A stretch of 41,517 nt of DNA from Macrostomum lignano (taxonomy: Eukaryota): assembly GCA_002269645.1 (NCBI GenBank), contig NIVC01003925.1, forward strand, positions 1 through 41,517, given 5' to 3'. The stretch's first letter is position 1, and every line of letters begins with the position of its first letter. This document shows positions 1,804 through 24,246 of this stretch, piece after piece. Made by a program: the position numbers and the translations under genes. The notes beneath the pieces are model-generated. The model made no database searches, was not told where the DNA came from, and saw nothing but the letters and a program-made list of their open reading frames with translations.

Positions 1804-2197
1804 AACACAGCCAAGAATAATTTCCTTGTAGGTCTTTCGTGTTTTGGTCATTGCATACAAAACAGTCATGCACAGCTCACCGCAAATATCACTGCTAAGA
1901 CCTTGGAGAATAAAGTCTGAGCGATAAATTTTTTTATTTTTTTCCCTTCATATAATTTCTTAGCTCTTCTGGTACTGCCGTCCCATAGCTATCGAAGTAA
2001 TAACACTTGTGCTTGCGATCGGGATCAATCACCCAGCAAACCCAATGAGATCCTGGCTTATCGGTGGTGTCAAAGTTCATGATGCCGCATTCCTTTCTTA
2101 GAGGAAAATCAGGCAGAGTGTCCCTCATAAATATTCCTCTAAAGTTTGGGATTTCCAGTTCGTTAGCCAAATCTTCAAGAAAGTTATTTGTCGTCAT
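1798..2197 (-). CDS. Adenain-type (adenovirus-like) cysteine protease, 1-nt frameshift in an A-run at ~1930-1940
   Basis: GSHWV (His) and YFDSYG (Asp) lie in the listed ORF. The shifted frame continues IYRSDFILQGLSSDICGELCMTVL...GCVS*, supplying the oxyanion Gln and catalytic Cys. Confidence 0.87.
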
Positions 2198-2288: not shown

Positions 2289-5200
2289 CTAATCTCCAGT
2301 GCCCGAACGGTAGACTGTTAATTTGTCATCAAAAATGAATCTCTTGTTATCTGCACCTGACAGTCCAATCTTCTTTTGCTGAATTGTGTGAATAATATGG
2401 TTTTTAGATTGTAGCTTTGAGAACTCATGTGATGTCTTTTTGTTGCAATTCAAGGCGTCTCTGTATTCAGCTTCATTAATTTCCTTCCTAACCACACGTT
2501 TCGGAATTCCCTTTGATTTTTTAATTGGGTCTGACGACTCACATTTTACAAAATAGGACTTTGCTCTCAACCCAATGAATTCAGTGATTATGTCACCAGC
2601 AATCTCGTCCTTCATTTTCCCAATCACTTTCTTGTTAGTAGCGTCAAACACTTGATCGCCATTCTGTGTCCTGAAAGATTCATCATACTCAGACAAGTCA
2701 AACAAATCTTTTTGCTGCAGCATGTCCTGATAAATGTCTTCTGTTTGAATGTCCATAATAAAACTGTCTGTGTCAGTGTACAAGAGTTTCATTTTATCCT
2801 TGTACTGCTGCTTCATGCCATAGAAGAACTGGTACATCAGACGTTTTGATTCGTCGAGAACAGTGACACCTGTATAGATCGGCTTGCGCAGCGTCACCTT
2901 GGTTTTGTAAAATATGATCACACCTAAGTAGCTATTAAAGATATGGAGTTCTTTGAATGTTGGCTTTGACATATTTGCCTGAATAACAGCAGGCTCTGAT
3001 GAGGTAACAAGTTTCAGGTTTGTTCTTTTCCGCTCATTCTCAAGAGTCTTGCCATAGACAGAGTTGTTGGCCAACTTAAAGAGGTTCTTGTCAAAGTCGT
3101 TGGTTGCTTTGGTCCTAAACTGGGTATTCTTATCAATGTAGGGTTTCATCCACGCTTCCTCTGTAAATGTAAGAGCCCTGTGAACTATGGTGACCCTACA
3201 ACCAAGTGAGATAAAATACTGAAGCAGTTTGTAATGAATTTTGTAACGTGTCTTGTTGTTTAGATTCTGTGTTAGTTTTTCTGTATGTTCTTTTTCTGTT
3301 CCTGACAGGTGCCAAGTTCCATTATTATCATTGGGAGTTTCGATTATTTTCGGGCACTTGATGTTCTCTGGGAAGGGTGGAAAGTCAGAGAAATAATCGT
3401 GAAGCTCTGGTGGAATGTAAACATCAACCTCATAAATGGCAGCCAATGAAAAGTCCCACTTTAGTTCTGATGAGGGTAGCCATCGAAAATCTCTAACTGG
3501 AAGATCTTGACTCATCGCCCACCCGTAGAGATTATTAGCGTCCAAGTAAGTAATGTAGTTTGAGGGCTGCTCCTTATTGTAAGATTCAATGTAGGGATTG
3601 TTTGATTTTGCATATCTATGTGCAAATTGAGATCCCCCTCGCTTTGACGATTCGACAAAATTGTACATGTCAATGTCTGTAAGAAGTTCAATGTACCAAT
3701 CTGGATCTTGATCCCATTTCATTTTAAGCAAAGATTCCCAGCTAGTGGCAGGGAGAGACACATAATGTGCTGGATCGAGGCCATATGCTGTGTACCAGGT
3801 GTATCTGAAGGTTTCAAACACATCAGCCAGCAGAAACACATCTGTGTAGAGGTAAAGCAGGTGATACTGGAAGAAGTTTTGACAATTAAAGAAATTATAT
3901 ACATGCTTCGCGTGCTCATAGTCTTTGTCAGAGATTCCAGAGTCTGTTAGCTTTGAAAAGAACTTCTCCTGTGGTGGTAAACCTTCTTTAAATACGTGAT
4001 ACCCAGTAATATTTTCATAGGGGTAGAAGCCTTTGGTTCTCAGGAGTTTAAATGATTCATCACTGTTGTTAATTTTACTTGCAAACATCTTTGTATATGT
4101 ACATTGTTCATCTTTTAGATTCTTGCTTAGTTCGTCTAGACTGGCAGCTAGAAATTGATATGAATCCTTCAGTCTTATTTTACCTTTACCCGAATTATCC
4201 TGTTTAATATCAACACACTTAAACTTCTCCTTGTTCTCTGCGATGCAGTCAAGGTGTATGTCTGGAATCATGCCGATTTTTTCAACTATTAAATGCATGT
4301 CATAGTTCTTTGCGTTGTGACAAAATATCGTTAGATCATGAATGTTCGATTTTAGCTTTAGATTACAGGTGTTATGCGCTGCACCTCTAAATTTCCCAGT
4401 AAAGTGGCAGTGGTCCCTAACGGTGGGGTTTTTAATATTAGTGCAAGTTAAATGTTTCCTGCAGATGTGGCAATGAGTTGCTGATAGGAAATTGCTTTCA
4501 TCCTCCTCAGTCATCATTATTGGAACAGGTTGAAGGGTGCTAATCACTTTTTGCAACTCTAACATTCTGGCAATAAACTGCTCCACACACTGCTCTCCAA
4601 AGAAATAATTATACTCAACAAGTCCTTTTGTATTAATAAAGGCATATGCTACTGAATTGGGGACATGTTTTTGAGTTTGAGTTTGTTTTTGTGTTTGAGT
4701 TTGTTTTTGAGTTTCTGGCATGATTGAGCATTCGAAATCAGCATATACAACAAATGGGAGCTTCTCCATCTTGTGATAGTTCTTAAACCGGAGATATTCT
4801 CTTCAGCTGAAGGAAGAGAGCAGTTTGTTGGGTGATCCTCGCATGATAATTCATGCTCTGTTAGTTTTTCAAAGCGTTCAGGTCCACTGTAATGCTTAAG
4901 GCACAAGCGGCAGATGGCAACAGCCTCGTGATGATTATTTAACTGCTTGTGAATGAGTCTTGAAAGATCTTTAATCCAAACATAGTGAGCCTCCTCTAGT
5001 AAATTACCAATCACTAGAAGATCCACTTCAGTCCGCCTTTTCCCCTCGGGATCTAAAACGTCTTTGCTACATCTGACCGGTTGAACTTTCTCAGTTTTTT
5101 CACTCCATTCAAAGACTGTGATTCTAATTTTGTTATTAAACACTTCTTCTAGCTTTGAGATCTGAGAGATCGCCAAGCCTCCTTTGTCAAACCTGATTCC

Positions 5201-6112
5201 CTTCTTTTCGCATTCGATAAGATAGTAGTTGAAATAATTTTGATAATTTGAGGTTCTTTCGGGGTGGTGAGGTACACTAATAAGTGCAGAAAGAACTGCC
5301 CATAGGGCACAGCAATTGTCTTTATTTTTAACATTTATGCAAGCTTTTTTGCCGGCTAGCTTATGCGGGAGCTCTATATAAGAGGAGGCTTTAAGTGGGT
5401 CATATTTCATGACCATGACAGTTGCTCTTTGAATCCCTCCCACGACCCATCCGGAACCTCTGGATGTAAACGCTTCAATTTTCTTAGTGACATCTTGAAG
5501 GAAAGGATCCAGTGTGTCAGTAGGGGTGAATGGTTTTGCCTTTGTTGTCATGTAATACTCGAGATGCTCAGTGGGTTTTGCAGGCATATAAAACGCAATC
5601 TTGAATGATATCTGTAGTTTAAAAGTCTTGCGTGTTTTGAGTGTGTGATCAACAACTGATTGGATGCTGTCTTTATAGTCGTAGATGTTTGCGGTGGTAT
5701 CCTTAATTGGGATTGTGTACTCTATGTAATGTTCTGTAAACTTCCTCTGTGCAAAATTAATCTCTTCAATGGCAAGCTCCGACTCTTTTAAATGGATTAA
5801 TTGCTCTAATTTCTCTTGTTCCTGCTTATTTTGTGGGTACTTTGTTTTTTCACCAGTGAGAGTTTCGTATTTGTTAACTAAGTTGCGACTCCTCTCTTGG
5901 TGTTCCTTTGCAGAATTTTTTATAGGCGCATACTGGTTGGATTCTAATTGATTGATGATTTCCAACTGTTTTTCATAGCTTCCCAGGTGACCAGGGTCGG
6001 TGTTAAACTTTTGTTTACATGCTTCTCTTAGTAAATTACTTTTGTCTTGAAATGAGACGCCTTTTGAAAAATATTTGTTGACTAAATCTTTTGCTGGATT
6101 AGCTTTTGGCAT
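2289..6112 (-). CDS. pPolB: Protein-primed family B DNA polymerase with endonuclease-VII-like Zn insert; one 1-nt frameshift at ~4790
   Basis: ExoI VVYADFE, ExoII HNAKNYDMH, ExoIII LYTDVFLL, PolA YLDANNLYGWAM, PolB KLANNSVYGK, PolC YTDTDS, and CHIC...VRDHCH..G.FRGAAHNTCN. The N-terminal half is ORF 4649-6151; true ATG inferred at 6112 (MPKAN). Confidence 0.96.
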
Positions 6113-6253: not shown

Positions 6254-6710
6254 TCACATCCGCATTATTGTAAACCCAGCATTGTGCAGTGTCATGATTG
6301 CTTTGACAATGTCAGACTTGCTTACAGAATTTTCATGCTCACAATCATCACGATCGGGGCAGCCCTCAGGGCAGCCCTCTCCTGCCTTAATTGTTATACC
6401 TTTATCTCTTGCAATCTTTTGCAATTCAAGCTGGTGGGCTCTATCATTACCAGCTTTAACAGCAGTTGCTACACCTCCAGCTACACCACCTGCGGCACTT
6501 ACAGCGCCTGCAATGATCGGAATAAGAGCTGCTAATGGTAGGATTCCTCCTGACTTTTCATCTGTGATGCTGTCTTTGTTCATTACACTGAACTATTTGC
6601 TGCACGGGATCGACTTTTACTTTGGCACCTTTTATTGATATAAGACCTGGTTTCTTTGATTCAATGATTTTATTGAGTTTATTGATGGTTCTGGTTTCAA
6701 TCTTTGTCAT
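6254..6710 (-). CDS. Adenovirus pX/mu-precursor-like virion protein; basic N-terminal segment probably joined by a frameshift near 6590
   Basis: KSGG-ILPLAALIPIIAGAVSAAGGVAGGVATAV closely parallels adenoviral pX (MRGG-ILPLLIPLIAAAIGAVPGIASVA). An upstream Lys-rich frame from ATG 6710 reads MTKIETRTINKLNKIIESKKPGLISIKG... Confidence 0.62.
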
Positions 6711-6727
6711 TTTTTTATTTTAATATT

Positions 6728-7723
6728 TTAATTAATTTCTGTGTCAGCCGGTATCACTAGGAGTTCAGCTCTAGTGAATGACCGTGTGGGGGATTTAGGG
6801 TTAAAGGCCTGAGATAAAAAGTAATAGTCACCAGAGTCGGAGGTAAAATGTCTGTCTATTTTATGTACATCAAGGCTGAAGTATGGATCTGTAGCTCTTC
6901 TTTTAGTGTCTTTCTCTAGCTCTCCAGGTAGATATAAAAAGCGTAGAAACTCAGAGTTTGTCAGTATATATGGTGATTCAACTCCTGGAAGCTTAGGGTA
7001 GTTCGAGGTGTCTGTTCTATGAGATGCCTTAAGTTCGACAGTGTCTTGTTTAATTGCATGGGACGGTTTCAATCCAGTCATACGTGTGACTTCATTGTTC
7101 AGTTGCTCTATAACAGTGGGGAGCCGGTCTGTCCACTTGGTATAGTATTGGCCACTTTTTAGTTTCAGCTCTACAGCTGTCTGCTTAGTGAATAGCCTCT
7201 TGGCTAGAGTTAGATTGAATCTCTCAACGTACGCTTGGTCTCTGTGCAAGTTTGTTCTGCCATAGCGAATCTCTGTATTGTGCTTTTCCATAAGGGATTT
7301 CACTGCACCCATGAATTCTTTGCCAGGATCAGTCATAAAGGTTTCAGGGTAGCTAAGGGGTGAGTTTTTATAAATATCTTGGAGGGCGGCTGCAACTGCT
7401 TCTGACTTCTTAGTCTTAAGCGGTCTCGCTTCCTTATATCTGGAGGCAACATCTGTAATTGTGAGAGCATACTTGTAGCCCGAGTCATTGGGGAGAAACA
7501 GAAGATCTGCTTGGTGCGCCTCATTAGGTTTATAAATACTGAAATGGGGCCTTTCAAATTTTACTGGTGGGAAATAGACTTGGTAGACTGCTTGCTTAGA
7601 GAGCCATTTTTCTACTTTAGCTTTTGGTTCCTTACTTAGTTCTGCGAGTTTGGTGACTGCATTTTTTCCTACAAAGAATCCTTTGTCGCTGTAGTAGAGT
7701 TTTTTAAGTTTCTGATCTGTCAT
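6728..7723 (-). CDS. Retroviral-like (RVE) DDE integrase of Polinton type, intact
   Basis: HQADLLFL (D), MTDPGKEF (D), AYVERFNLTL (E) and the N-terminal L..LYY motif. ATG at 7723 (MTDQK); the ORF track starts upstream at an alternative codon. Confidence 0.93.
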   Translation of the reverse strand: MTDQKLKKLYYSDKGFFVGKNAVTKLAELSKEPKAKVEKWLSKQAVYQVYFPPVKFERPHFSIYKPNEAHQADLLFLPNDSGYKYALTITDVASRYKEARPLKTKKSEAVAAALQDIYKNSPLSYPETFMTDPGKEFMGAVKSLMEKHNTEIRYGRTNLHRDQAYVERFNLTLAKRLFTKQTAVELKLKSGQYYTKWTDRLPTVIEQLNNEVTRMTGLKPSHAIKQDTVELKASHRTDTSNYPKLPGVESPYILTNSEFLRFLYLPGELEKDTKRRATDPYFSLDVHKIDRHFTSDSGDYYFLSQAFNPKSPTRSFTRAELLVIPADTEIN

Positions 7724-7753
7724 TTTTTTAAAAAGAAAATTTAAAATAAAATA

Positions 7754-8242
7754 ATGCAACGCTCTGGTGGTAAAATAGATTCACATGGACTGATAGAAAA
7801 GCTTCCTCATCCAAACAAAGGCTGGACCATTCCCGGGTACAAATATTGCGGGCCTTTGAATCCACTTGAAATACAGTTAGATACAAACGATAATCCAAAT
7901 CCTGGGCATGAGCCTGTGAACGAGCTAGACTCTGTCTGCATGTGGCACGACGTTAAATATAGAGATTTTCCTGAGGAGAAGAATCGCTGGGACAAAGAAA
8001 TGCTTAGGAGACTAGACAATATAGGGGCTTCAAGCGGATTTCGTGAGTCGATCGCTCGGAAGCTAGTTAAAGCTGTTATTTTTAGTAAGACAAAACTGGG
8101 GTTGGGGGTCGACGACGAGGGTGGGTGTTTGGGGAGAGAGGGTGGGTGTGCGGAGTGCTCGGGAGCAGGGTTTATTTTGTGCGCTCCTAACAATGAATTG
8201 GGAAGGCTCTTGAAAGATATGGGGGTAGAGAGAGCAGAATGA
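7754..8242 (+). CDS. Parvovirus VP1u-like phospholipase A2 (Polinton/adintovirus PLA2)
   Basis: Ca-binding loop PGYKYCGPLN, catalytic LD..C..HD..Y, downstream D (RWDKEM) and a K.KLGLG tail. Confidence 0.85.
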   Translation: MQRSGGKIDSHGLIEKLPHPNKGWTIPGYKYCGPLNPLEIQLDTNDNPNPGHEPVNELDSVCMWHDVKYRDFPEEKNRWDKEMLRRLDNIGASSGFRESIARKLVKAVIFSKTKLGLGVDDEGGCLGREGGCAECSGAGFILCAPNNELGRLLKDMGVERAE

Positions 8243-8344
8243 TTCAAGTGCCTCAAGTGGTTGGAAAGAAAACCTTGCGCGAAAGCTTGTAAAGGGGATT
8301 ATATGGGAGTGGGAGAGACGGGATAGGGTGGTCTAATTCCGGCG

Positions 8345-8440
8345 TATTTATAGCAACGAAAAGGGTCTTCCTTCTAGAATTCTGCTTCTAGAATATTCTA
8401 GAATAAAAAGAGAATCCCACGCCTTCCAAAGCTATAAAAG
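8345..8440. promoter_or_regulatory. Divergent Pol II promoter: perfect heat-shock element flanked by two outward-facing TATA boxes
   Basis: cTTCt aGAAt aTTCt aGAAt at 8385-8404 (4 alternating nGAAn units), an extra TTCTAGAA at 8372-8379, TATAAAAG (+) at 8433-8440 and TATAAATA (-) at 8345-8352. Confidence 0.68.
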
Positions 8441-8521
8441 CGAATCATAATCCTCGTCTGGGGTTATGCGCTAAATTCACTATCAAGTCTATCGACAACG
8501 ATTGCCACAATTTTCACAACA

Positions 8522-9301
8522 ATGAGCAACATTGAGAAAACAATCGAGAAATTGAAGGAGCTGCATGCGAAAAGTGATATTTCGCTTGCGGAGGCGTTAG
8601 CGTCTTGGTCGCCGGAGGAGCTGAAGAAGTTTAAGGAGAAACTTGACAAGCTAGAAGAAGATGGAAAAAACAAGAGTAAAAAACATAAAAGGAGACCAAT
8701 GAATCGCAATGCCGACAACGAGCAGGAGACATTCCTACGAAATCTCAAACGGAGGCTCACTGATCTGGCCGCAAAAGGTCTTCGCATTGACGGTGGCCTG
8801 CTTAAGACGCTGCTGTCCAGCCTAGGACAAGATCTACGGAATAAATCTAGCGAAGAGGTCCGCAGTATATTTGTGACCATTTCGGACTGTCTGCGACCGC
8901 TAGACAACTTAAAAAGCCTAGGAATGTTCGAGCAGGCTAGGGCAATCGTCTTCAGTACGAAAACTAGGCCTATCGAGAAGATTGCGGAGGAATTCGGATT
9001 GACCGTCCGAAAGGCGAAAGAGTATGTAGCGTACTACGAGCTAGCGATGCGTTACATAGCTCTGCCATTTACTGGATATTGCCTTACAACGATTTTGAAA
9101 TACAAGAAGGCAATCGTCGATTTTGCCAAGGACGACGAAGAGTTTCGTCTGGCCTTGGAAGTTGAGCATGAGACGTTCGAATACGTAAACGAAGAAGGCG
9201 TCACAGCCGAGATTGCCCTGACCAATTGGGCCGTGGACGTTCGAGACGACCCAGTTGACGAAGTAGATGACCCAGGTGACGGAGTAGATGTCATGGAGTG
9301 A
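8522..9301 (+). CDS. Orphan Polinton terminal ORF, 259 aa: coiled-coil/basic N-terminus, predicted helix-turn-helix, acidic tail
   Basis: Intact ORF with upstream TATA and downstream AATAAA (9370-9375). NLS-like KSKKHKRRP, HTH-like IEKIAEEFGLTVRKAKEYV and a D/E-rich C-terminus. Confidence 0.65.
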   Translation: MSNIEKTIEKLKELHAKSDISLAEALASWSPEELKKFKEKLDKLEEDGKNKSKKHKRRPMNRNADNEQETFLRNLKRRLTDLAAKGLRIDGGLLKTLLSSLGQDLRNKSSEEVRSIFVTISDCLRPLDNLKSLGMFEQARAIVFSTKTRPIEKIAEEFGLTVRKAKEYVAYYELAMRYIALPFTGYCLTTILKYKKAIVDFAKDDEEFRLALEVEHETFEYVNEEGVTAEIALTNWAVDVRDDPVDEVDDPGDGVDVME

Positions 9302-9468
9302 AGAAGTGACTACTACATGGCCGTCTGTTGTGTTTGAAATAGTGATTTTTATAAATTGATTAGTCGTTAAATAAAAGCCTGCTTATAATTATTAAAATAA
9401 ATAATAACTGAATCAACAAAATTCGTTTTTTTTTGTTAATTGGAATCTGACTCGACACGTTTTTTTTA

Positions 9469-10258
9469 CCTACTACTAGTAGAAGTAGTAGTTTAGAGTG
9501 AATATCTTTAGCGATAGAAAATTTCAATTTACGAAGCTTCGTAAACTCTTTAATGAAAAAACAGAAAATACTAAAATATGTTTTTAACCTACTGCTAGTA
9601 GAAGTAGTAGTTTAGAGTGAATATCTTTAGCGATAGAAAATTTCAATTTACGAAGCTTCGTAAACTCTTTAATGAAAAAACAGAAAATACTAAAATATGT
9701 TTTTAACCTACTGCTAGTAGAAGTAATAGTTCAGAGTGAATATCTTTAGCGACAGAAAATTTCAATTTACGAAGCTTCGTAAACTCTTTAATGAAAAAAC
9801 AGAAAATACTAAAATATGTTTTTAACCTACTGCTAGTAGAAGTAATAGTTCAGAGTGAATATCTTTAGCGATAGAAAATTTCAATTTACGAAGCTTCGTA
9901 AACTCTTTAATGAAAAAACAGAAAATACTAAAATATGTTTTTAACCTACTGCTAGTAGAAGTAGTAGTTTAGAGTGAATATCTTTAGCGACAGAAAATTT
10001 CAATTTACGAAGCTTCGTAAACTCTTTAATGAAAAAACAGAAAATACTAAAATATGTTTTTAACCTACTGCTAGTAGAAGTAATAGTTCAGAGTGAATAT
10101 CTTTAGCGACAGAAAATTTCAATTTACGAAGCTTCGTAAACTCTTTAATGAAAAAACAGAAAATACTAAAATATGTTTTTAACCTACTGCTAGTAGAAGT
10201 AATAGTTCAGAGTGAATATCTTTAGCGACAGAAAATTTCAATTTACGAAGCTTCGTAA
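9469..10258. repeat. 119-bp tandem array, ~6.6 copies, each with the perfect 18-bp palindrome TTTACGAAGCTTCGTAAA
   Basis: Unit starts at 9469, 9588, 9707, 9826, 9945, 10064 and 10183; only a few variable positions. Confidence 0.97.
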
Positions 10259-10429
10259 GCATACAAAAGACAATCAAGATTCAAAGAAAATTTAGATTTT
10301 TTTCAAAGGGTAAGGACCCTGCGCTGATGATTTAAAGTTTTAGGGATCTGGTAGCACGTTGCGGATTGAATGTGTGGAGAAGAATGCAGATTATTTTCTG
10401 ATTGTTTCGAAGATGCTATGGGTGGATGT

Positions 10430-10742
10430 CGGTGGATTATGTAGGACACCTGCTATGCTCTGATTCTGTCGTGGAGGAAGGAGGATAGGTTAGGAGGATT
10501 ATGGATGACGTTTTGTGAGCGAGTTTTTCTGATTCTGTCAGGGATAATATGGATGGATTTAGGAGGATTATGTTCGAAGTTTTCGGAACAAGTAGGACAC
10601 CTGTTATGCTCTGATTCTGTCAGGGATAATATGGATGGATTTAATGGGATTATGGAGGACGTTTTGTGAGCGAGTGCGACCCCCCTTTTTTCTGATTCTG
10701 TCAGGGATAATATGGATGGATTTAGGTGGATTATGGAGGACG
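10430..10742. repeat. Degenerate subterminal repeats (CTGATTCTGTCAGGGATAATATGGATGGATTT x3 plus partial; GTTTTGTGAGCGAGT x2; GTAGGACACCTG x2)
   Basis: Direct inspection; position is consistent with the interior of a Polinton TIR. Confidence 0.75.
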
Positions 10743-11199
10743 TGAAAAATTTTGTCCCAGAAGCCCCCTCATGCCTTCTACTGCCCTCGAAGGCAGGTGC
10801 AAATAACAGCACCTGCACCGGCTGTGAACAGTACGACTCGGTACAGACGATGTAGCCTGTCAGGTGAAGTTGCCACGACACCCTCTGGCAGTCATGCAAA
10901 GCGTCAGATGTGCCTCACTGAAAGACAGCCCAGGCGAGCCTGTATTTAAAAAAGTGCAGATTTGCAGCCAATTCGTGCACTGATCGAACCAGTAGCATCC
11001 TGGTGTAAAAAGTAGGCTCGAGCGGACATCTTTCCGACCCGACGGGTCTTTGGGAGGGGTGCGTCGGCTATGGAAGAAACATTCCTAGTTTTTACGATAA
11101 ATCACATTCCAAAGGGGCTAAATTACAGCTACTTGATGGTTAAGAATCACTCGCTGACTCGCTGACCTACCTGCCCATTCGTCATCAATTGCGCTCCGA

Positions 11200-12346: not shown

Positions 12347-15300
12347 ATGGCGTCGCAAGCAGGCAAAATTCGGAGTCAAGAACTCAACCTCAACGATCCC
12401 GAACTCGCTGAGGCATGGATGCAGCAGCTTTCCGCCACGGCCCGCAATAAGAAACTTACGGACACGGACGAAGCGCGGGATAAGACTGACTTGTTCCTGT
12501 CCAAGGCTGGACTACAGGCGATCCGGACGCTGTCTCTGATGGCCGCACCAAAAAAGCTGGAGGCACTCAAATTTAGCAAAATCGAGACACTAGTAACAGC
12601 AACAATCCGGCCTAAGAAAAGGCTGGTCATCGCTGAGCGCACCAGATTTCTAAGCCTCAAACAAGAGCCAGGTGAATCGATCAGCACTTACTACCGTCGG
12701 CTTCGAGCAGCGGCGGCGCTGTGCGAATTCGAGGAGCTTGGGGCCAAGCAGTCCAAAGAAAACGACCTCATCGCAATGAGACTGCTCGACGGCCTTGCCT
12801 CTCCCGAACACAAGAAGAGGATTTTGGAGCGGCTCCAAAAGGCGAAGAAAAACTTCTTGACGATATCCTGCAAAACCTGCAGCAGCTCAAACAAATCCAA
12901 CAGTACAATAAAGGCACGACCAACACCGCTTCATCAGGCGCGCCCGTTCCCCTGGAGATCGCTTTTGCAGGTCAACCAAGAACGGCCGGTGCGGCAGCCA
13001 AGTCCTCAGGAGCGGCCGGTAAAGGCAGGTGCTATTACTGCGGTACAACTCACCCCAAAGGCAGTTGCCCGGCTTTCGGTCAGAGGTGCACCAAGTGTAA
13101 ACGAAAGAATCATTTTGCGGCGGTCTGCAGATCCAGAGAAGTGCACTTGACCCAAGAAGAATCAACAAGCGATCGTGAGAATCAAGACCAAGAGCCAGCC
13201 GACATTTTCGTGGTCGCTCCAGGGCGTAGCAACGGACTCTTTCACGAGGCGAAGATCAATGGTCGGACCCTGCCCATGCAGATTGACACAGGGGCCGAGG
13301 TGAGTCTACTTCCGCAAAATCTGTGGGTCAAGCTCGGCCTCCCTTCTCTCAAAAGGTGCAGGCGAACACTCAGGCAGTACGACGGATCCAGCATTTCCTG
13401 TCTAGGAGAATTCACTGCCTCCCTAGAAACCGACACCAACTTTGTCACACTGGACTTAATCGTCACGGAGGCCAGCAAGCCACATGGACTGCTGGGAATG
13501 GACGTCATCAAGCTGCAAGGGGACGCTATTACAATCAACGCTGTCGGCCAGCTAGGATGTCTCAAAAACTTCAAAGCCAAGATTCGCCTTGTTGACGGAG
13601 TAAAACCGTTTTACTGCGCAGCCAGGCCCGTTCCCATTCACCTGCGAGACCGGGTTAATGAGGAACTCAAGCGAATGGAGGCTGAGCAGATAATTGAACC
13701 TGTTCCAGCCAGAGGGAGTCAGTGGGCCTCACCAATTGTCAGTGTGCTGAAACCTAACGGAAAGGTGCGCGTCTGTGCTGACTTCAAAGCAGGAGTTAAT
13801 CACCAGGTGTGCAATGATACATACCCAATGCCTGAGATGGAGACAATCTTTGCGGAGACCTCTGGAATGTCGCACTTCTCCAAAATCGACCTCTCGGATG
13901 CATATTTGCAGATAGAGCTTGACGAAGACAGCAGAGAAATCACCACAATCGCCACACCTTTGGGCCTCTATCGCTATAAGCGTCTCGTTCCAGGCCTCAA
14001 ATCAGCATCATCTATCTTTCAAAAGGCAATGGAATCAGTCCTTGCCGACATCACCGGCAAGATAGTTTATCAGGACGACATTCTTCTCGGCGGAAAATCT
14101 GACTCAGAGATCGACTCAAAAGTCAAAAACGTCATAGCTACCCTAAAGAAGGCAGGAATGTCAATCAACTTGGAAAAATCAACCCTCAAGGCTAGGGAGG
14201 TCTCATTTCTCGGGTACAGAGTCAGCGAGAGAGGAATTTCTCCTGATCCAAATTTGGTCGATCGGATCCGCGCCGTCAAGACTCCGGAAGACAAGAAGCA
14301 ACTAGAATCTTTTCTTGGTCTTGCCAACTTCTTTGGCAGATTCGTTCGCAACTACTCACAGATCATCGAGCCACTCAACCGGTTACGAACCAAGAACGCA
14401 AGGTTCAGTTGGGGACCCGATCAGACTCAGGCCTTCGAGCGAATCAAAGCCATTCTTAGCAGTGCGCCAGTCCTACAGCCCTACGACAAGACCAAAGAGA
14501 CGACTCTTACCACAGATGCAAGTGAGAGGGCCATCGCCGCTGTGCTCACCCAAAACGGCCACCCGGTTATATACCTTAGCAGACGGTTGAGCAGCAGGGA
14601 GTCGCGCTATTCGAATATCAAAAGAGAGGCCCTCGCCATCGTTTGGGCGATGGAACGCGCCAAGCAATTCCTTCTCGGTGCCCGATTCACTCTACGGACA
14701 GATCATCGGCCTCTAGAGTTTCTCTTCGGAGCGCGGCGGCAACTTCCAAAGGTGGCGAACGCTCGGCTACTTCGCTGGGCGATCAAGCTAATGGCCTTCG
14801 ATTTTGACACGATCTACACAAAAGGTGAGCACATTCCGCACGCTGATGCCCTCTGTCGCCTTGACTGCAACGGTGAACTATCCAAATCAGAACCTGCTGC
14901 CTTGGAAGGTCTGGTTCATTGGGCAGGCGGCCCGGTGATTCCATGGGAGGAGCTGCAAGCGGAGACCCAGCGCGATCGTCTACTCCAAGATATTGCTGAG
15001 CGAGTCGCATCAAGCAGATGGTCAGGATGCTCCCCAGCTGAGAGGCCGTACAAGTCAGTTCGCCATGCCTTAGTGATAGACGACGGCATTCTCTGCTACG
15101 GTGATCGACCAGTGATTCCTGCGGCACTCAGGCAGCGCGTCCTGGATCAGGTACACAATGACTCGCATCAGGGAACCATGGCAACTCTCTCACTCATCCG
15201 CAACTCGGCCTGGTGGCCAGGATATTGCACGGACGTGGAGCGGCACGTACGCAACTGCCCCACCTGCACGCGAATTCGGCCCTCTGGCACACCTACGGTA

Positions 15301-15347
15301 CATCAGTGGCCAAAGGAAGACGAGCCGTGGCATCGCGTGCATATGGA
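12347..15347 (+). CDS. Gypsy gag-pol polyprotein (Gag, 2 Zn knuckles, protease, RT, RNase H, integrase Zn finger); 1-nt frameshift at ~12850, truncated
   Basis: AER.RF..LKQEPGES, CYYCGTTH...C / CTKCKRKNHF..VC, IDTGAEVS, DLSDAYLQ, YQDDIL, TDASERAI, H..SHQG...CPTC. Confidence 0.93.
12348..12363 (+). promoter_or_regulatory. Primer-binding site TGGCGTCGCAAGCAGG, probably for a tRNA-Ser
   Basis: TGG one base after the inferred LTR end; its complement CCTGCTTGCGACGCCA resembles tRNA-Ser 3' ends. tRNA identity is inference. Confidence 0.6.
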
Positions 15348-15998
15348 AGCTGAGATTGCAGAAATCAGCTCGGCCCTTGCCAGCCGGGTAGTGCAGGTAG
15401 CTCGGCTCTGAGCTGTTGAGCCTCCAGCTGTTCCCGAACTCAAACAGCTGCCTCTCGGAGCTGCCAGCTGGCAGGACGCTGCCGTTTCTCAGTTTGAATC
15501 CGCTCGCGTCGCTGTTGCCCAGCAACCCGTCCAGTCCGCTCGGGTATTTTCCTGCCAAGTCCAGTTGAACGCCGACTCTGAGCGAGCTCGTCTCCATGGT
15601 AACGGTGACGCTGACGCCGGTAGACTCGTCGACAATGTCGATGGTGCTGTTGTCGGGGACCTCCAGCCGGTAGCTGTCCAGTCTGGTCGCGTTGCTCAGC
15701 GCCGCCAGCTCGCCCCTGACGCTGCCGATCCGACGTCCGTCGCTGCTGAAGACGTCGAGGTCGTCGAAGCTTTCGTTGCGGATCACCGACACGGCCAGCT
15801 CGTTGAGGCCGGACTTCAGCGCGACGCCGACGAAGGCCGTGGCGGCTCCACCGCTGACTGGCGCGGTGCGCGCTTGCAGCCGCAGCGTCGGTGAGTTCGG
15901 CCACCGCTCGCTGGTGAGCAGGTGGTACTCGCAGTGACCGTTGAATGTGTAGCTGCGGTTCGAGAGCGTGCTCAGGTGGGGGTCGCCTCGGTTGAAGC
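15348..15998 (-). CDS. Exon 8: VWD domain (GDPHLSTLSNRSYTFNGHCEY...GLLGN...FEFGNSW), cut off at the Gypsy junction
   Basis: GDPH...YTFNG.GEY and GLLGN are VWD hallmarks; CTCCAG acceptor at 15999-16000; no donor before the junction. Confidence 0.88.
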
Positions 15999-18900
15999 CT
16001 GGAGATCGGAGGTTGGTTTTTTGGTTTGATGCTTAGTTGCTCAGGTTTTGGTTTGATGCTCAGTTGGTTAGGTTTTGTTTTGATGCTTAGTTGCTCAGGT
16101 TTTGGTTTGATGCTTAGTTGCTCAGGTTTTGGTTTGGTGCTTAGTTGCTCAGGTTTTGGTTTGATGCTTAGTTGCTCAGGTTTTGGTTTGATGCTTAGTT
16201 GCTCAGGTTTTGGTTTGATGCTTAGTTGCTCAGGTTTTGGTTAGATGCTTAGTTGCTCAGGTTTTGGTATGATGCTTAGTTGCTCAGGTTTTGGTATGAT
16301 GCTTAGTTGCTCAGGTTTTGGTATGATGCTTAGTTGCTCAGGTTTTGGTTAGATGCTTAGTTGCTTAGGTTTTGGTTTGATGCTTAGTTGCTCAGGTTTT
16401 GGTGTGATGCTTAGTTGCTCAGGTTTTGGTGTGATGCTTAGTTGCTTAGGTTTTGGTTAGATGCTTAGTTGCTTAGGTTTTGGTTTGATGCTTAGTTGCT
16501 CAGGTTTTGGTTAGATGCTTAGTTGCTTAGGTTTTGGTTTGATGCTTAGTTGCTTAGGTTTTGGTTTGATGCTTAGTTGCTCAGGTTTTGGTTTGATGCT
16601 TAGTTGCTCAGGTTTTGGTTAGATGCTTAGTTGCTTAGGTTTTGGTTTGATGCTTAGTTGCTCAGGTTTTGGTTAGATGCTTAGTTGCTTAGGTTTTGGT
16701 TTGATGCTTAGTTGCTCAGGTTTTGGTTAGATGCTTAGTTGCTTAGGTTTTGGTTTGATGCTTAGTTGCTCAGGTTTTGGTTAGATGCTTAGTTGCTTAG
16801 GTTTTGGTTTGATGCTTAGTTGCTCAGGTTTTGGTATGATGCTTAGTTGCTCAGGTTTTGGTTAGATGCTTAGTTGCTTAGGTTTTGGTTTGATGCTTAG
16901 TTGCTCAGGTTTTGGTTAGATGCTTAGTTGCTTAGGTTTTGGTTTGATGCTTAGTTGCTCAGGTTTTGGTTAGATGCTTAGTTGCTTAGGTTTTGGTTTG
17001 ATGCTTAGTTGCTCAGGTTTTGGTATGATGCTTAGTTGCTTAGGTTTTGGTTAGATGCTTAGTTGCTTAGGTTTTGGTTAGATGCTTAGTTGCTTAGGTT
17101 TTGGTTTGATGCTTAGTTGCTCAGGTTTTGGTTAGATGCTTAGTTGCTTAGGTTTTGGTTTGATGCTTAGTTGCTTAGGTTTTGGTTTGATGCTTAGTTG
17201 CTCAGGTTTTGGTTAGATGCTTAGTTGCTTAGGTTTTGGTTTGATGCTTAGTTGCTCAGGTTTTGGTTAGATGCTTAGTTGCTTAGGTTTTGGTTTGATG
17301 CTTAGTTGCTCAGGTTTTGGTATGATGCTTAGTTGCTTAGGTTTTGGTTTGATGCTTAGTTGCTCAGGTTTTGGTTAGATGCTTAGTTGCTTAGGTTTTG
17401 GTTAGATGCTTAGTTGCTTAGGTTTTGGTTTGATGCTTAGTTGCTTAGGTTTTGGTTTGATGCTTAGTTGCTTAGGTTTTGGTTTGATGCTTAGTTGCTC
17501 AGGTTTTGGTTTGATGCTTAGTTGCTCAGGTTTTGGTTTGATGCTTAGTTGCTCAGGTTTTGGTTTGATGCTTAAAAATGTCCTAAAGCAGTTGAGCCGC
17601 AATACGCTGGAGCTGCCAAAAGTGAATAAATAAATGAAATTACTCAATATATGTGTACCCAGATCTAAAGTTAAAGCAAAGCAGTTACCTCCAGCTGGTG
17701 GTTGGTAGTGCTGGCTGGTGCACACGGGTCTTACGGCAGAATAAGCGGACATCATTCCGGCAGCTGAGCAGATTTTTTGGCCATATAATTCATCCTGACG
17801 AAACCAGAAGCCATATCGAATTTTATCACTTGTGCTGTTCCGAAAGAAGTACATTGCGTGTCCGGCACCGTCTGAGCTGCTGCTGATGAGGTGGCCAGCT
17901 GCAAATGATGCTGTTTTATTAATTCTGTTGTGTGCGCACTTTGCAGTACGGAGTGCACTCTGTCCTCCAGACTGTATGAGTCACCCATGCGTCCCCTTTT
18001 TCGTGGTTTACGCGAGTCACCCCTCCCCTGCTTGAGTTGCCCTCCCCTTGGCGGGGTGTTTGGCTGGATCGGTGGTTGGGTGGTAGGTGGGCTTGTGGTC
18101 TTCCCCCTCCGCAGGCAATGGCTATTTTGCGGCTCCCGCCGGGTTTTTAGGCGGTGCTTTTCTTTCTGCGTCTCCTCTCTGCGTTTTGGTGAAGTTTACT
18201 ACACCTTTTCATTTTCAGTTTGAACTACCGGTGTTAGAGTTTAGGATCTCCGCGTTTTAGGGTCTCCGGCCCGGAGATCACAAACTGAAAATTGTGTCAT
18301 TTTAAGATCGCCAACACGGAGATCGGAAACCGGAGATCCTAAACCAGGACTTTGTTTTTGCGGCCCTGACGGAGAGCTGAAACTGGTTTAGAGTCTCCTG
18401 GGGGGAGATCAGAAACTGGTTTAAGATCTCCGGGTGCGGAGACCTAAAAATGCCCCGGAGACCCTTAAACGGTTTCAGATCTCCTACCCCGGAGACCCAT
18501 AACCGTTAGAAGTCTCCAGGGCCCATAACCAATAACCAATAACCCAAAACCAATTTTAATTTTCTCGCATCCGATTCCGACGGTTTTTGGTTGGGACAGT
18601 TTCGTCGAAATTCGACAATAGGCATAAATTTTCAACAAACAATCGATCAGTTCCAACAACTGCCAACCAATTCCGTCAAGTGGGGTAGTAAGAGCTTGGT
18701 ATATCGTTTTCCGGTTGAAAATTGCATTCTGCAAATTCAATCCCGACACTATTTAATCCGACACTACTTGTTTGTGAGTCTTGCGTACTCTACTAACCCC
18801 CCCCCCTATTGTCCTTTTCTTTCTCCGTCGCCCATTATATTTCTGTCCCACCCCTCTGGCGCTTGCGTAAGCCTCCCGGTGCCTGATTGGCGGAGGCTCA

Positions 18901-21900: not shown

Positions 21901-24246
21901 TTTGGAGCTGCTGCGACACTCGTCAACGTCTTTAATTGGGTTCAGTTTATGGATGATCTCATACAAGTATTCAAGGAGTCAGAAATTTATTGACAAGTTA
22001 CCAAAATAAAAAATTAAATTTACCAGTGCAATTAATTTTTCTGTTGCCTTGAAATCCATTGATGCAGGTGCAATTGTATGACTCTAGCGTGTCCGTGCAG
22101 GTAGCGTACAGACCACAGGGCTTCGAATCGCATTTGTTCCCTGTCGCGTCGTTTAATTAAGAGTTCAAACTAAGTAGCACGATGATTTAGCAGAATAAAT
22201 GATGTTTCAGTTTCGATACATTATTCATAAACGATGCTAACACAAACGACGCTCAATACATAATTATTAACGCATTGGAGTGGGGGGGGGGCCGCACCGG
22301 GAACGAAATCGGGGTGGTGGGTACACTGGATGTACAGTCAATATTTCAATAGTCAATCAGCTAGTTACTTAGTCATAAGTGCAGCGGCAGAATCCACCGC
22401 TGCCTCATTCTCGTCTGCGATGGTTGTAGCATCAGATACGGATAACGAAACAAAGGAAAACAGGTCATCTATTGAGTCTATATAAACGTTAATCAGACCT
22501 CACCCATCACTCAACTAAACACACACATCAGATTTATAAGAAAAAACACATCAGACCCACAAGAACACACATACACACACACGTCATATCTATAAGAACA
22601 TAAGAACACACACATCAGATCCAGAAGTACATTGAAATTTGATCGGAAAGTTTTTTCATCCTAACTTGGTATACAATTGTAGCGTTTAACAATAAGAGAC
22701 TAACACAGAAAGCCGCAACTAATTGAGCAAGTAAGAAGAACCGACGGATAAACGTGGCTCTTTAAACTGCTAACCATCTTTTAAAAAGTAGCTCAGTTAA
22801 AAGGAGCGCAGTTAAGCTCAGTTAAAAAGTATGTCACTCTGAGCAATAGACCAGAAGGTCCCCGGAACACCGAATACTTGTAGTTTAGAGCTAGACGTCA
22901 AAATGTTGTAATCCAGAAAATAAAAAAGATTATCTATTATTTCTTGGAAACCGATGATTTGATCAACAGAGCTACAAATGCTTCATTCAGCATGTAGCAG
23001 CCCGTAGCCGAAGGAGGTCAAGCGGGTCCGCGACCCCTCAGAAGTTTTGGCGCCACTTTACAGCAGGTAGATCTGGGAGCACGAGAAATGCCCGCAGACG
23101 AATGGCCCGCCGAGATTTGCCCGCAGTGCTTTTTTCCTGCAGCGCATTTGACAGCTAGATTCTGTCTGCATTGCCCCCGCCCCAAAAAATATACATTTGA
23201 TATGCAGTTACTATCAAAACGTTTTGATCGTGTAAATATTTTTATTAAGACTTACAAAGCATTGGGGAGGCAATGCAGACAAAATCTGCCGCGTGGTCAA
23301 ATGCGCTGCAGGAAAAAAACATTGCGGCCAAATCTCGGCGAGCAAATCTCCACGGGCAATAACTCACGGGCAAAATGCACTGCGGGCAAATCTCGGCGGG
23401 AAAAGCTCGGCGGGCAAATCTCGAGGGGCAATCTCCCGCGGGCAAATCTCGGCCGGAAATTCTCATGGACCCGGCGCCCCTTGGTGATAAAGCCCCTTGG
23501 TGCTGGCGCCCCTTGGTGATAAAGCCCCTTGGTGCTGGCGCCCCTTGGTGATAAAGCCCTTTGGTGCTGGCGCCCCTTGGTGCTGGCGCCCCTTGGTGAT
23601 AAAGCCCTTTGGTGCTGGCGCCCCTTGGTGATAAAGCCCCTTGGTGCTGGCGCCCCTTGGTGCTGGCGCCCCTTGGTGCTAAAGCCCTTTGGTGCTGGCG
23701 CCCCTTGATGATAAAGCCCCTTGGTGCTGGCGCCCCTTGGTGATAAAGCCCTTTGGTGCTGGCGCCCCTTGGTGATAAAGCCCCTTGGTGCTGGCGCCCC
23801 TTGGTGCTGGCGCCCCTTGGTGCTGGCGCCCCTTGGTGCTGGCGCCCCTTGGTGCTAAAGCCCTTTGGTGCTGGCGCCCCTTGATGATAAAGCCCCTTGG
23901 TGCTGGCGCCCCTTTGTGCTAAAGCCCCTTGGTGCTAAAGCCCTTTGGTGCTAAAGCCCCTTGGTGCTAAAGCCCTTTGGTGCTAAAGCTCCTTGGTGCC
24001 AAAGCCCCTTGGTCTTGGCTAGGCAAGGCGTTTCAATGATGGCGTCCCAATAAACCTATCCTTAGGCTACTTTTCTCTGCAAACTCGGGTTTTGGTTCTG
24101 CTTCTAGGCGCGTCCTTGGAAACAGTAGAAAGAGATTTTCACCTACCAGTCTTACAGTCGCTCCCAGTCCCTCCGGGGTCGCAAGCGCCAGAGACTCCAA
24201 TCCAGGCAAGCAGAAGAAGACAAATCTTCTTTGAGTCGAATTTCAT
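15348..24246 (-). CDS. Host multi-exon secreted/ECM gene: SP-EGF-cbEGF-NIDO-AMOP-VWD (MUC4/SUSD2/Mesh-like), 3'-truncated
   Basis: Phase-compatible GT-AG exons: 24147-24246, 22024-22140, 21810-21929, 21610-21725, 21009-21446, 19686-20358, 19398-19589 and 15348-15998. Extra exons in the long introns cannot be excluded. Confidence 0.85.
16017..17574. repeat. 27-bp minisatellite (GATGCTTAGTTGCT[C/T]AGGTTTTGGT[TT/TA/AT/GT]), ~57 copies, intronic
   Basis: The 9-codon period is visible in the spurious ORFs (MLSCSGFGL)n. Confidence 0.97.
17740..17830 (+). pseudogene. Possible relic of an RTE-type LINE C-terminus
   Basis: RQLSRFFGHII resembles RQLRWFGHV; short match only. Confidence 0.3.
18230..18525. 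repeat. Cluster of GGAGATC/GATCTCC/GGAGACC motifs in both orientations; DNA-transposon subterminal-like
   Basis: More than 10 copies within ~300 bp; no partner end found in the window. Confidence 0.5.
19398..19589 (-). CDS. Exon 7 (tentative): AMOP C-terminal end
   Basis: Open phase 1-1 frame of 64 codons with TGTAG acceptor and GTATGT donor; weak motif match. Confidence 0.55.
19686..20358 (-). CDS. Exon 6: NIDO C-terminal half (FQAVV..ETHSYAIFNY...SSGRPGR) plus AMOP (C..W...CP...DRRY...CCY)
   Basis: TTTCAG acceptor, GTGAGC donor; lies within ORF 19630-20409. Confidence 0.85.
21009..21446 (-). CDS. Exon 5: NIDO N-terminal half (VGRYGAISF...VVAPYW...EFNPLTALIVTW)
   Basis: Matches the NIDO NG.ISF / IAPFW / F.P...I.TW pattern; TAG acceptor, GTAAGT donor, 146 codons. 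Confidence 0.85.
21610..21725 (-). CDS. Exon 4: pre-NIDO segment (...VVEAPLVVPFLIGSQESLFCR)
   Basis: TTTTTCAG acceptor, GTAAGT donor, phase 1-0; splices into VGRYGAISF of the next exon. Confidence 0.8.
21810..21929 (-). CDS. Exon 3: calcium-binding EGF (DVDECRSSSKCDAHADCMNLIGSFDCICKPGYYGNGTVC)
   Basis: DVDEC consensus, phase 1-1, GTGAGT donor. Confidence 0.92.
22024..22140 (-). CDS. Exon 2: EGF domain (CDSKPCGLYATCTDTLESYNCTCINGFQGNRKINCT)
   Basis: Six-Cys EGF spacing, phase 1-1, CAG acceptor and GTAAAT donor. Not in the ORF track. Confidence 0.88.
23076..23471. mobile_element. Non-autonomous foldback/MITE-like element with long inverted arms
   Basis: Arms 23105-23183 and 23264-23342 are near reverse complements around an AT-rich spacer. 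GCGGGCAAATCTC subrepeats; weak outer TIR similarity; no TSD seen. Confidence 0.7.
23473..24013. repeat. 16-bp minisatellite with two unit types (GGC- or AAA-GCCC[C/T]TTGGTG[C/A]T), ~34 copies
   Basis: Direct inspection. Confidence 0.95.
24147..24246 (-). CDS. Exon 1: signal peptide MKFDSKKICLLLLAWIGVSGA-CDPGGTGSDCKT
   Basis: ATG at 24246, basic-hydrophobic-small-residue signal pattern, phase-1 donor G|GTAGGT. Confidence 0.65.

Follow-up and report, generated by a model that had tools for sequence, protein, structure and literature searches.

The right end of a Polinton and its terminal cassette

The DNA analysed here (the window, 41,517 nucleotides of a Macrostomum lignano contig) starts at the contig's first base and contains the right part of a Polinton, which ends at position 10782 and is closed by the right terminal inverted repeat (10285..10782, + strand, ending in CTTCTACT; compared with sister copies). 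A block of genes occupies the minus strand: a retroviral-type integrase (6728..7723; PF00665, E 9.9e-10), an adenovirus pX-like ORF (6254..6583; PF05829), a protein-primed DNA polymerase B (pPolB; 2289..6112, here in two ORFs, 4649-6112 and 2289-4769; PF03175, E 1.1e-16) and an adenovirus-type cysteine protease, a short ORF in this copy (1934..2197), with a weak Pfam match (PF00770, E 0.003, below the curated cut-off). An earlier examination of the letters alone (the sequence-only reading) had described this block, and Pfam confirms it, weakly for the protease; what had been overlooked is a plus-strand PLA2-like ORF (7754..8242; PF08398) that sits between the integrase and the heat-shock element (HSE) discussed below. 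The start codons of integrase and PLA2 stand head to head, 30 nt apart (7723-7754), so that the promoters of both must overlap the opposite gene.

Polintons are recognized by pPolB together with a retroviral-type integrase, both found in the window, by terminal inverted repeats starting with AG(T) and by a 6-bp target-site duplication. The ends are seen complete in sister copies: C741 (20.3 kb, with a 499-bp perfect repeat) and C110 (18.9 kb) are both bounded by AGTAG...CTACT and flanked by 6-bp target duplications. The packaging ATPase, protease and capsid protein also expected are represented by weak matches when the window and C110 are combined, the latter contributing an ATPase (E 0.0016) and a double jelly-roll capsid protein (DJR; E 3.2e-5), both below the curated cut-offs. 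The gene set (pPolB, integrase, protease, ATPase, capsid-like gene, PLA2 and pX), the terminal inverted repeats and the 6-bp duplication agree with those given for Polintons and Alpha adintoviruses in the accessible part of PMC8502044, which mentions neither heat nor promoters; PLA2 of alpha adintoviruses has a C-terminal pX-like domain (PLA2X), whereas PLA2 and pX are separate ORFs in the window. The family is large, with at least 150 PLA2 matches (150 scored of 654 candidates) that are 84-100% identical. Beyond the Polinton, the window holds a Ty3-type retrotransposon (12347-15411; gag, protease, RT, RNase H and integrase zinc finger) and tandem arrays of 27 bp (15884-17700) and 16 bp (23377-24112).

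Between PLA2 and the terminal repeat lies a hypervariable cassette, laid out as a promoter, an ORF (termed cargo here) and often a tandem array. The cargo ORF of the window (8522..9301, +) codes for a 259 amino acid protein of an unnamed family with a helix-turn-helix (HTH) predicted at about residues 131-181 (profile and structure model); it is followed by two AATAAA poly(A)-type signals (9370..9401, +) and by a 119-bp array of about 6.7 units (9462..10258, +), typical of what we call the type-A cassette. The unit length of the array after the ORF differs by cassette type (119, 84, 140, 70, 163, 125, 90, 89 and 48 bp), and a repeat scan of 27 cassettes left 4 without a repeat. Type-specific arrays stand directly behind the cargo ORF in the window (9462-10258) and at L124, L137, L179, L190, L200, L219 and L221; cargo type and array type are co-located. 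Some cargo genes of B2-type cassettes (L127, L144 and others) apparently have an intron, their frame stopping at a GTAAGT donor-like site. Locus L190 (464-1093) has a different cargo, which ends in a cysteine pattern that we take to be RING-finger-like.

The HSP90-type promoter block described in the next section is followed by a variety of ORFs (A, B, B2, C and others). Homology at 26-34% connects cargo ORFs A, B, B2 and D; the integrases are 87-96% identical in DNA. Membership of the cassette C cargo in the same family was considered and is not supported (profile probability 1%); among copies of this cargo, codon differences that alter the amino acid are about as frequent as silent ones. The closest relatives of the window cargo (36-44%) have a TATA box and no HSE, from which it appears that promoter and cargo combine freely. 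In an integrase tree (480 nt, 32 rows) type-A copies do not group and cassette types are scattered; as judged by these comparisons, terminal cassettes have therefore been exchanged among near-identical Polinton backbones.

A promoter block homologous to that of host HSP90

The sequence-only reading had placed a perfect four-unit HSE, TTCtaGAAtaTTCtaGAA, at 8386..8403, a two-unit site, TTCTAGAA, at 8372..8379 and a rightward TATA box, TATAAAAG, 29 nt after the HSE, and all three were found at these positions (the TATA box at 8433-8440, +). The two-unit site (TTCtaGAA) is 14 nt from the four-unit HSE and out of phase with it, and the TATA box together with a preceding CCAAAGC (8426..8440, +) is homologous to the TATA region of HSP90. 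Promoters controlled by heat-shock factor (HSF) are expected to have at least three alternating nGAAn units shortly upstream of TATA; four perfect units are present here. One of 3000 shuffles of 8243-10782 produced a perfect four-unit HSE, and 110,717 bases of comparison DNA contain none. This rarity is limited to the perfect form: when the whole window was shuffled and one mismatch tolerated, 15 of 100 trials gave a match. The HSE of the window is real and not a product of chance. The host genome has 7 HSF matches (PF00447) over the cut-off and, given the four perfect units with TATA and the homology described below, the hsp-type promoter that had been proposed is genuine by its sequence. Contigs of four runs guessed to be RNA cover the cargo ORF without indicating strand, start or level, and one of them begins inside the HSE; they were set aside.

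When the genome was searched with 8240-8530, 40 of 58 candidates were scored: 5 are near-identical copies, and the other 35 match over a short stretch confined to the HSE region. The best of these short matches lie in front of cytosolic HSP90 genes, at a distance of about 195 nt; an HSP90 ORF was found downstream of the block at L007 and L008. The homologous block (8350..8417, +) comprises 68 nt at 88% identity (genome-wide E 8.3e-16), bases outside the HSE included, and the four-unit HSE is letter-for-letter equal to that of host HSP90. Over a gap-free stretch of 64 columns, window and HSP90 agree at 18/18 GAA/TTC positions and 38/46 others. The gap between HSE and TATA (8404-8432) is 29 nt in the window versus 40 nt in HSP90 and most sister cassettes, a difference of 11 nt or about one helical turn. 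A check for HSE and TATA in related elements, suggested with the sequence-only reading, thus gave more than expected for the HSE and the rightward TATA, the block being homologous to a host promoter.

Within the 64 columns, 8 differences separate the window from HSP90, 5-9 separate sister cassettes from HSP90 and 12-15 separate the window from its sisters. HSP90 is thus central in the distances, so that its promoter is likely the source and the block was likely captured by the Polinton from its host; we infer that this took place in one early event or two separate ones. The opposite direction, in which a Polinton gave the module to the HSP90 gene in the way Helitrons do in Caenorhabditis (PMC6927752, in its accessible part), appears scarcely credible. 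Copies in elements do far outnumber those in genes, but, besides the central position of HSP90, the gene examined is interrupted by introns and lies among host genes, the 60 kb analysed around it being free of Polinton sequence, and the other HSP90 paralogue has parts of the layout in common with the first (HSE-8 nt-GAATCC and the decamer CTAAAAATAG), which makes that layout old in the host. Two further donors were considered and rejected: HSP70, whose 19 upstream regions with HSEs gave a best match of only 22 nt (E 0.11), and LTR elements, to which 0/44 exact modules (defined next) were assigned.

The exact module, TTCTAGAA-N6-TTCTAGAA-NN-TTCTAGAA, was searched genome-wide with the reversed pattern as a control (44 matches versus 2). 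Four of the matches belong to HSP90 genes, 38 lie in Polinton ends (4 type-A copies, the window included, and 34 other ends) and 2 are elsewhere, one in a cassette with no Polinton marker within 10 kb and one in a TATA-less copy in host DNA next to a TMEM17-family gene. A fifth type-A copy has one core change in the module and a frameshifted cargo. The 38/44 share of Polinton ends speaks for use of the module by the element. The TATA-less copy is diverged and stands just behind the TMEM17-family gene (G000:C1585:162825-162856).

Among the 150 listed copies of the family, 25 were known module carriers, 80 more were examined (60 in list order and 20 from the lower part) and 45 were left out. The 80 comprise 1 copy with the HSP90 module, 15 with a different HSE promoter, 57 with none, 4 in which an HSP90-type TATA region remains after loss of the HSE and 3 with an imperfect HSE. 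With 64/80 copies having no perfect HSE promoter, the HSE is a common option and not a requirement. In a further variant (L045 and L046), a 3-4-unit HSE has been rebuilt from the same block.

The different HSE promoter occupies the same slot and is unrelated to the first: four perfect units stand close to a TATA-like box. It has at least 40 matches (40 scored of 55 candidates); all 30 examined are in Polinton context, and the four units are intact in 27 of 28 inspected. It precedes a distant relative of the cargo (profile E 3e-5). This promoter resembles none of the host HSP70 and HSP90 regions compared, and no host donor was found among 30 loci examined of the 40 scored matches. Of the promoters in the slot, two are therefore of heat-shock type, one demonstrably that of HSP90; because two independent heat-shock promoters share one slot, selection may have acted on heat responsiveness.

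The same data bear on the possibility that the block was copied once or twice into a recombination-prone end and has since been carried along without function. This would fit the scatter of cassette types over the integrase tree, the many broken copies, the loss of the HSE in some of them and the stray TATA-less copy in host DNA at C1585. It fits poorly with a block that is always just upstream of the cargo ORF and accompanied by TATA, and with the independent origin of an HSE promoter in the same slot. In addition, changes in the HSE fall on the spacers: across 19 distinct blocks 1/18 core columns vary compared with 31/46 others, a conservation that is inflated by ascertainment because modules were partly found through the HSE itself. 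We regard a mere passenger as very improbable.

The leftward side of the block

The sequence-only reading had also proposed a second TATA box, TATAAATA, on the minus strand 20 nt upstream of the HSE sites, and divergent transcription of the cargo and of the integrase block. The box is present (8352-8345, −), at 19 nt rather than 20 from the first TTCTAGAA, but not as a conserved TATA. It is contained in an A/T-rich site, GTATTTATAG (8344..8353), which aligns with CTAAAAATAG of HSP90; the column reads CTATAAATAG or CTATAAGTAG in sister cassettes. A preceding motif, CCGGCGTATT (8339-8348), is found upstream of HSP90 as well. CTAAAAATAG is a MEF2 site (PMC4117452, in the part available). This decamer accompanies HSEs in both HSP90 paralogues and in 19/19 HSP70 upstream regions (17 forward, 2 in reverse only), and occurs 7 times in the 110,717 bases of comparison DNA. 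Such a distribution suggests that promoters of this animal may use a code of HSF plus MEF2. In related elements the leftward site is thus a MEF2-type column, only the rightward TATA side is conserved, and the divergent geometry is limited to the 5 type-A copies.

A bidirectional promoter would have a conserved TATA and a gene start on both sides of the HSE; the leftward TATA is not conserved. The leftward site is about 620 nt from the integrase ATG and, with the plus-strand PLA2 ORF in between, is directed into the 3′ end of a gene in antisense orientation. Before the integrase start there are 3-5 ATGs in 5/5 type-A copies and a minus-strand AATAAA in 3/5. Moreover, 27/35 non-A modules lie in inverted cassettes and have their rear towards the terminal repeat; in 5/5 cassettes checked the cargo is followed by AATAAA, and no further HSE of three or more units was found in a 19-kb sister element. 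A switch serving the cargo in one direction and the integrase-pX-polymerase-protease block in the other is, in view of these features, unsupported as a conserved device, and we consider it quite improbable. Some observations do favour it. TATAWAWR has 39 matches in the 110,717 comparison bases (about 1 per 2.8 kb), so that with the site kept in all 5 type-A copies some leftward use may occur in these. HSEs work in either orientation, and where the cassette is inverted its TATA points along the strand of the integrase block, at a distance of 2-3.7 kb.

That the replication block is controlled jointly with the cargo, as the sequence-only reading had envisaged, is likewise at odds with the 27/35 inverted modules and with the many further copies that have no HSE promoter. 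The arrangement also differs from that of ONSEN, in which an HSE is located at the promoter for transposition genes: here the HSE and TATA face an accessory ORF followed by AATAAA, and the integrase is 0.6-3.7 kb from the HSE, behind the antisense PLA2 gene.

The cargo protein and a probable response to heat

A gene for an orphan HTH protein had been noted downstream of the promoter, and the HTH is upheld as a prediction from fold matches. The structure model of residues 57-236, made from 63 sequences, has a pLDDT of 94; in the full-length model the first 60 residues are poorly modelled. The 50 best VIA matches are all HTH domains of DNA-binding proteins (Z 5.6-7.7), headed by DeoR, SorC, LsrR, sigma region 4, ParB and KorB (Z up to 7.7). 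The model has the tri-helical HTH fold, although values of Z under 8 may reflect a common arrangement. The longest matches are to ParB, KorB and VirB (with the full-length model, KorB at Z 7.0, rmsd 4.1 and 79 aligned residues; with ParB, Z 6.7, rmsd 4.8 and 82 aligned). Members of the ParB/KorB family have an extended HTH domain plus an N-terminal CTPase domain; no Pfam family fits the cargo ORF, and none of 63 members has a ParB Pfam match. The cargo is thus a predicted HTH DNA-binding protein.

Other searches gave little. A profile search found 77 relatives among 1.84 billion proteins; 10 of them were looked up, 2 clusters being hypothetical proteins of M. lignano and the rest unnamed or hypothetical, and an exact look-up of 10 cargo proteins in a protein collection returned 0/10. 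Foldseek searches of PDB and viral libraries with the model yielded nothing at the E 0.001 threshold, the profile against PDB sequences had a best E of 0.21, and the ESM Atlas gave weak unnamed matches only. Word-based protein searches with the cargoes of the window and of cassette B, and a search of phage records, produced no match.

Published heat-shock data exist for M. lignano. In the accessible part of PMC12801592 (preprint 10.1101/2024.12.18.629116), HSEs in LTR promoters are necessary for more than 250-fold heat induction, and two LTR families that bear HSEs are not heat-induced. The heat-shock table contains two classes of cytosolic HSP90 with log2 changes of 13 and 1.2-1.4. Pfam score differences between paralogues, as far as differing model versions allow comparison, are −0.8 and +3.2 bits for those analysed here and −0.8 and +3.5 for the published classes; on the basis of this match the donor HSP90 is placed in the high-count, modestly induced class (log2 1.2-1.4). 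The donor thus appears to be highly expressed and only 2-3-fold induced by heat. In the same lists one pPolB transcript goes up (log2 2.8, mean count 4.4) and one goes down (−1.6), neither of them assignable to this Polinton family, and the part available has no row for the PLA2, pX, ATPase or protease families (PMC12801592).

We favour as probable a one-way promoter: since a near-copy of the host HSP90 promoter precedes the cargo gene, heat or proteotoxic stress would likely raise the expression of this accessory HTH gene. The Polinton would have acquired a block of the host HSP90 promoter; host HSF, once activated, would bind the HSE block, which points one way, at the cargo gene, and heat would thereby increase cargo expression. 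The cargo protein would in turn bind DNA and, most speculatively, the adjacent tandem array, aiding escape from silencing or maintenance in stress. A strict switch is opposed by the 64/80 further copies that have no perfect HSE promoter and by the modest induction of the donor.

The modest induction also raises the possibility that what was captured is a strong everyday promoter, which gives high basal expression of the cargo and to which heat adds little. The match of the donor to the high-count class favours this, as do the many cassettes that drive the same cargo family with HSE-less promoters and the MEF2-type site that came along with the HSE. However, mere strength does not predict a second, unrelated promoter with a perfect HSE in the same slot, and the GC-rich stretch and second CTAAAAATAG farther upstream of HSP90 were not taken. 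We hold this explanation to be unlikely and prefer the heat-responsive one-way promoter.

Capture of HSEs by mobile elements is already known (ONSEN, Helitron1 and the Macrostomum LTR elements). The closest parallel to the one-way promoter is with the Ty3 LTR retrotransposons of the same host, which have canonical HSEs upstream of TATA and gained them repeatedly and independently (PMC12801592, part available). Heat induction was shown for them and is predicted for the Polinton promoter; their HSE lies in the LTR and drives the whole element, whereas that of the Polinton drives one accessory gene; no donor gene is named in the part available, whereas the Polinton promoter is traceable to HSP90. 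The accessible main text does not mention Polinton, Maverick or Hsp90. ONSEN (ATCOPIA78) of Arabidopsis likewise uses host heat-shock factor through an acquired element, but it is a plant retrotransposon whose HSE drives full-length RNA and extrachromosomal DNA, and what it has in common with host genes is a motif, not a promoter block that can be traced (PMC3907296, part available). Helitron1_CE of Caenorhabditis elegans is, like the Polinton, an animal DNA transposon with HSEs; HSF-1 binds to them, and host genes in their neighbourhood are rewired by them, whereas the Polinton block precedes a gene of the element itself (PMC6927752, part available). A literature search, with most subscription papers outside its scope, revealed no HSE-bearing Polinton and no mobile-element HSE traced to a host chaperone promoter.

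The layout of cargo and array has parallels too. EBNA1 of the Epstein-Barr virus binds a viral repeat array. That gene of a DNA virus is placed under HSF1 by an HSE in the Q promoter (PMC9157408, part available), and the combination parallels the cargo-plus-array layout, although the virus is a herpesvirus, EBNA1 is an unrelated protein and binding of the array by the cargo is hypothetical. VANC proteins, which counter silencing of the VANDAL transposons that encode them, diverge fast and are paired with element-specific tandem repeats (PMC5735166), but VANDALs are plant Mutator-like elements for which the part of that paper available mentions no heat-shock promoter; the likeness is one of layout, homology between VANC and the cargo not being suggested by Pfam. 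That the cargo and its array work as do the VANC and HSE-driven EBNA1 systems is, by analogy, our preferred hypothesis.

A wider reading treats the terminal cassette as an exchangeable module of borrowed promoter, fast-evolving HTH gene and own repeat array, in which a protein made in heat would bind the array and unlock the element, and recombination would swap the trigger. We put it forward as a speculative extension, rather unlikely as it stands; if it holds true, an inducing signal and a master regulator would be defined for the first time in an animal Polinton, and a stolen host promoter would underlie a eukaryotic equivalent of prophage induction. Which signal rouses animal Polintons is, to our knowledge, an open question. 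The HSP90-type block is a concrete candidate trigger, which could be tested at once because M. lignano apparently serves as a laboratory model for which transgenesis and published heat-shock RNA-seq are available; cassettes that share a cargo but naturally have or lack the HSE constitute built-in controls. Moreover, the HSE of a mobile element is here traced to a piece of a host chaperone promoter rather than to a motif that arose in place, a tracing absent from the accessible parts of the papers on HSE-bearing transposons compared above.

No relative of the distant cargo subfamily was found in viral contigs. Metagenome contigs contain 10 loci with distant relatives, and on none of these short contigs were Polinton genes detected. 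The relatives at L285-L287 have no HSE, and at two metagenome loci (L280:1530-1542 and L281:2006-2018) a three-unit HSE is located about 35 nt before a TATA box, together with a distant cargo relative.
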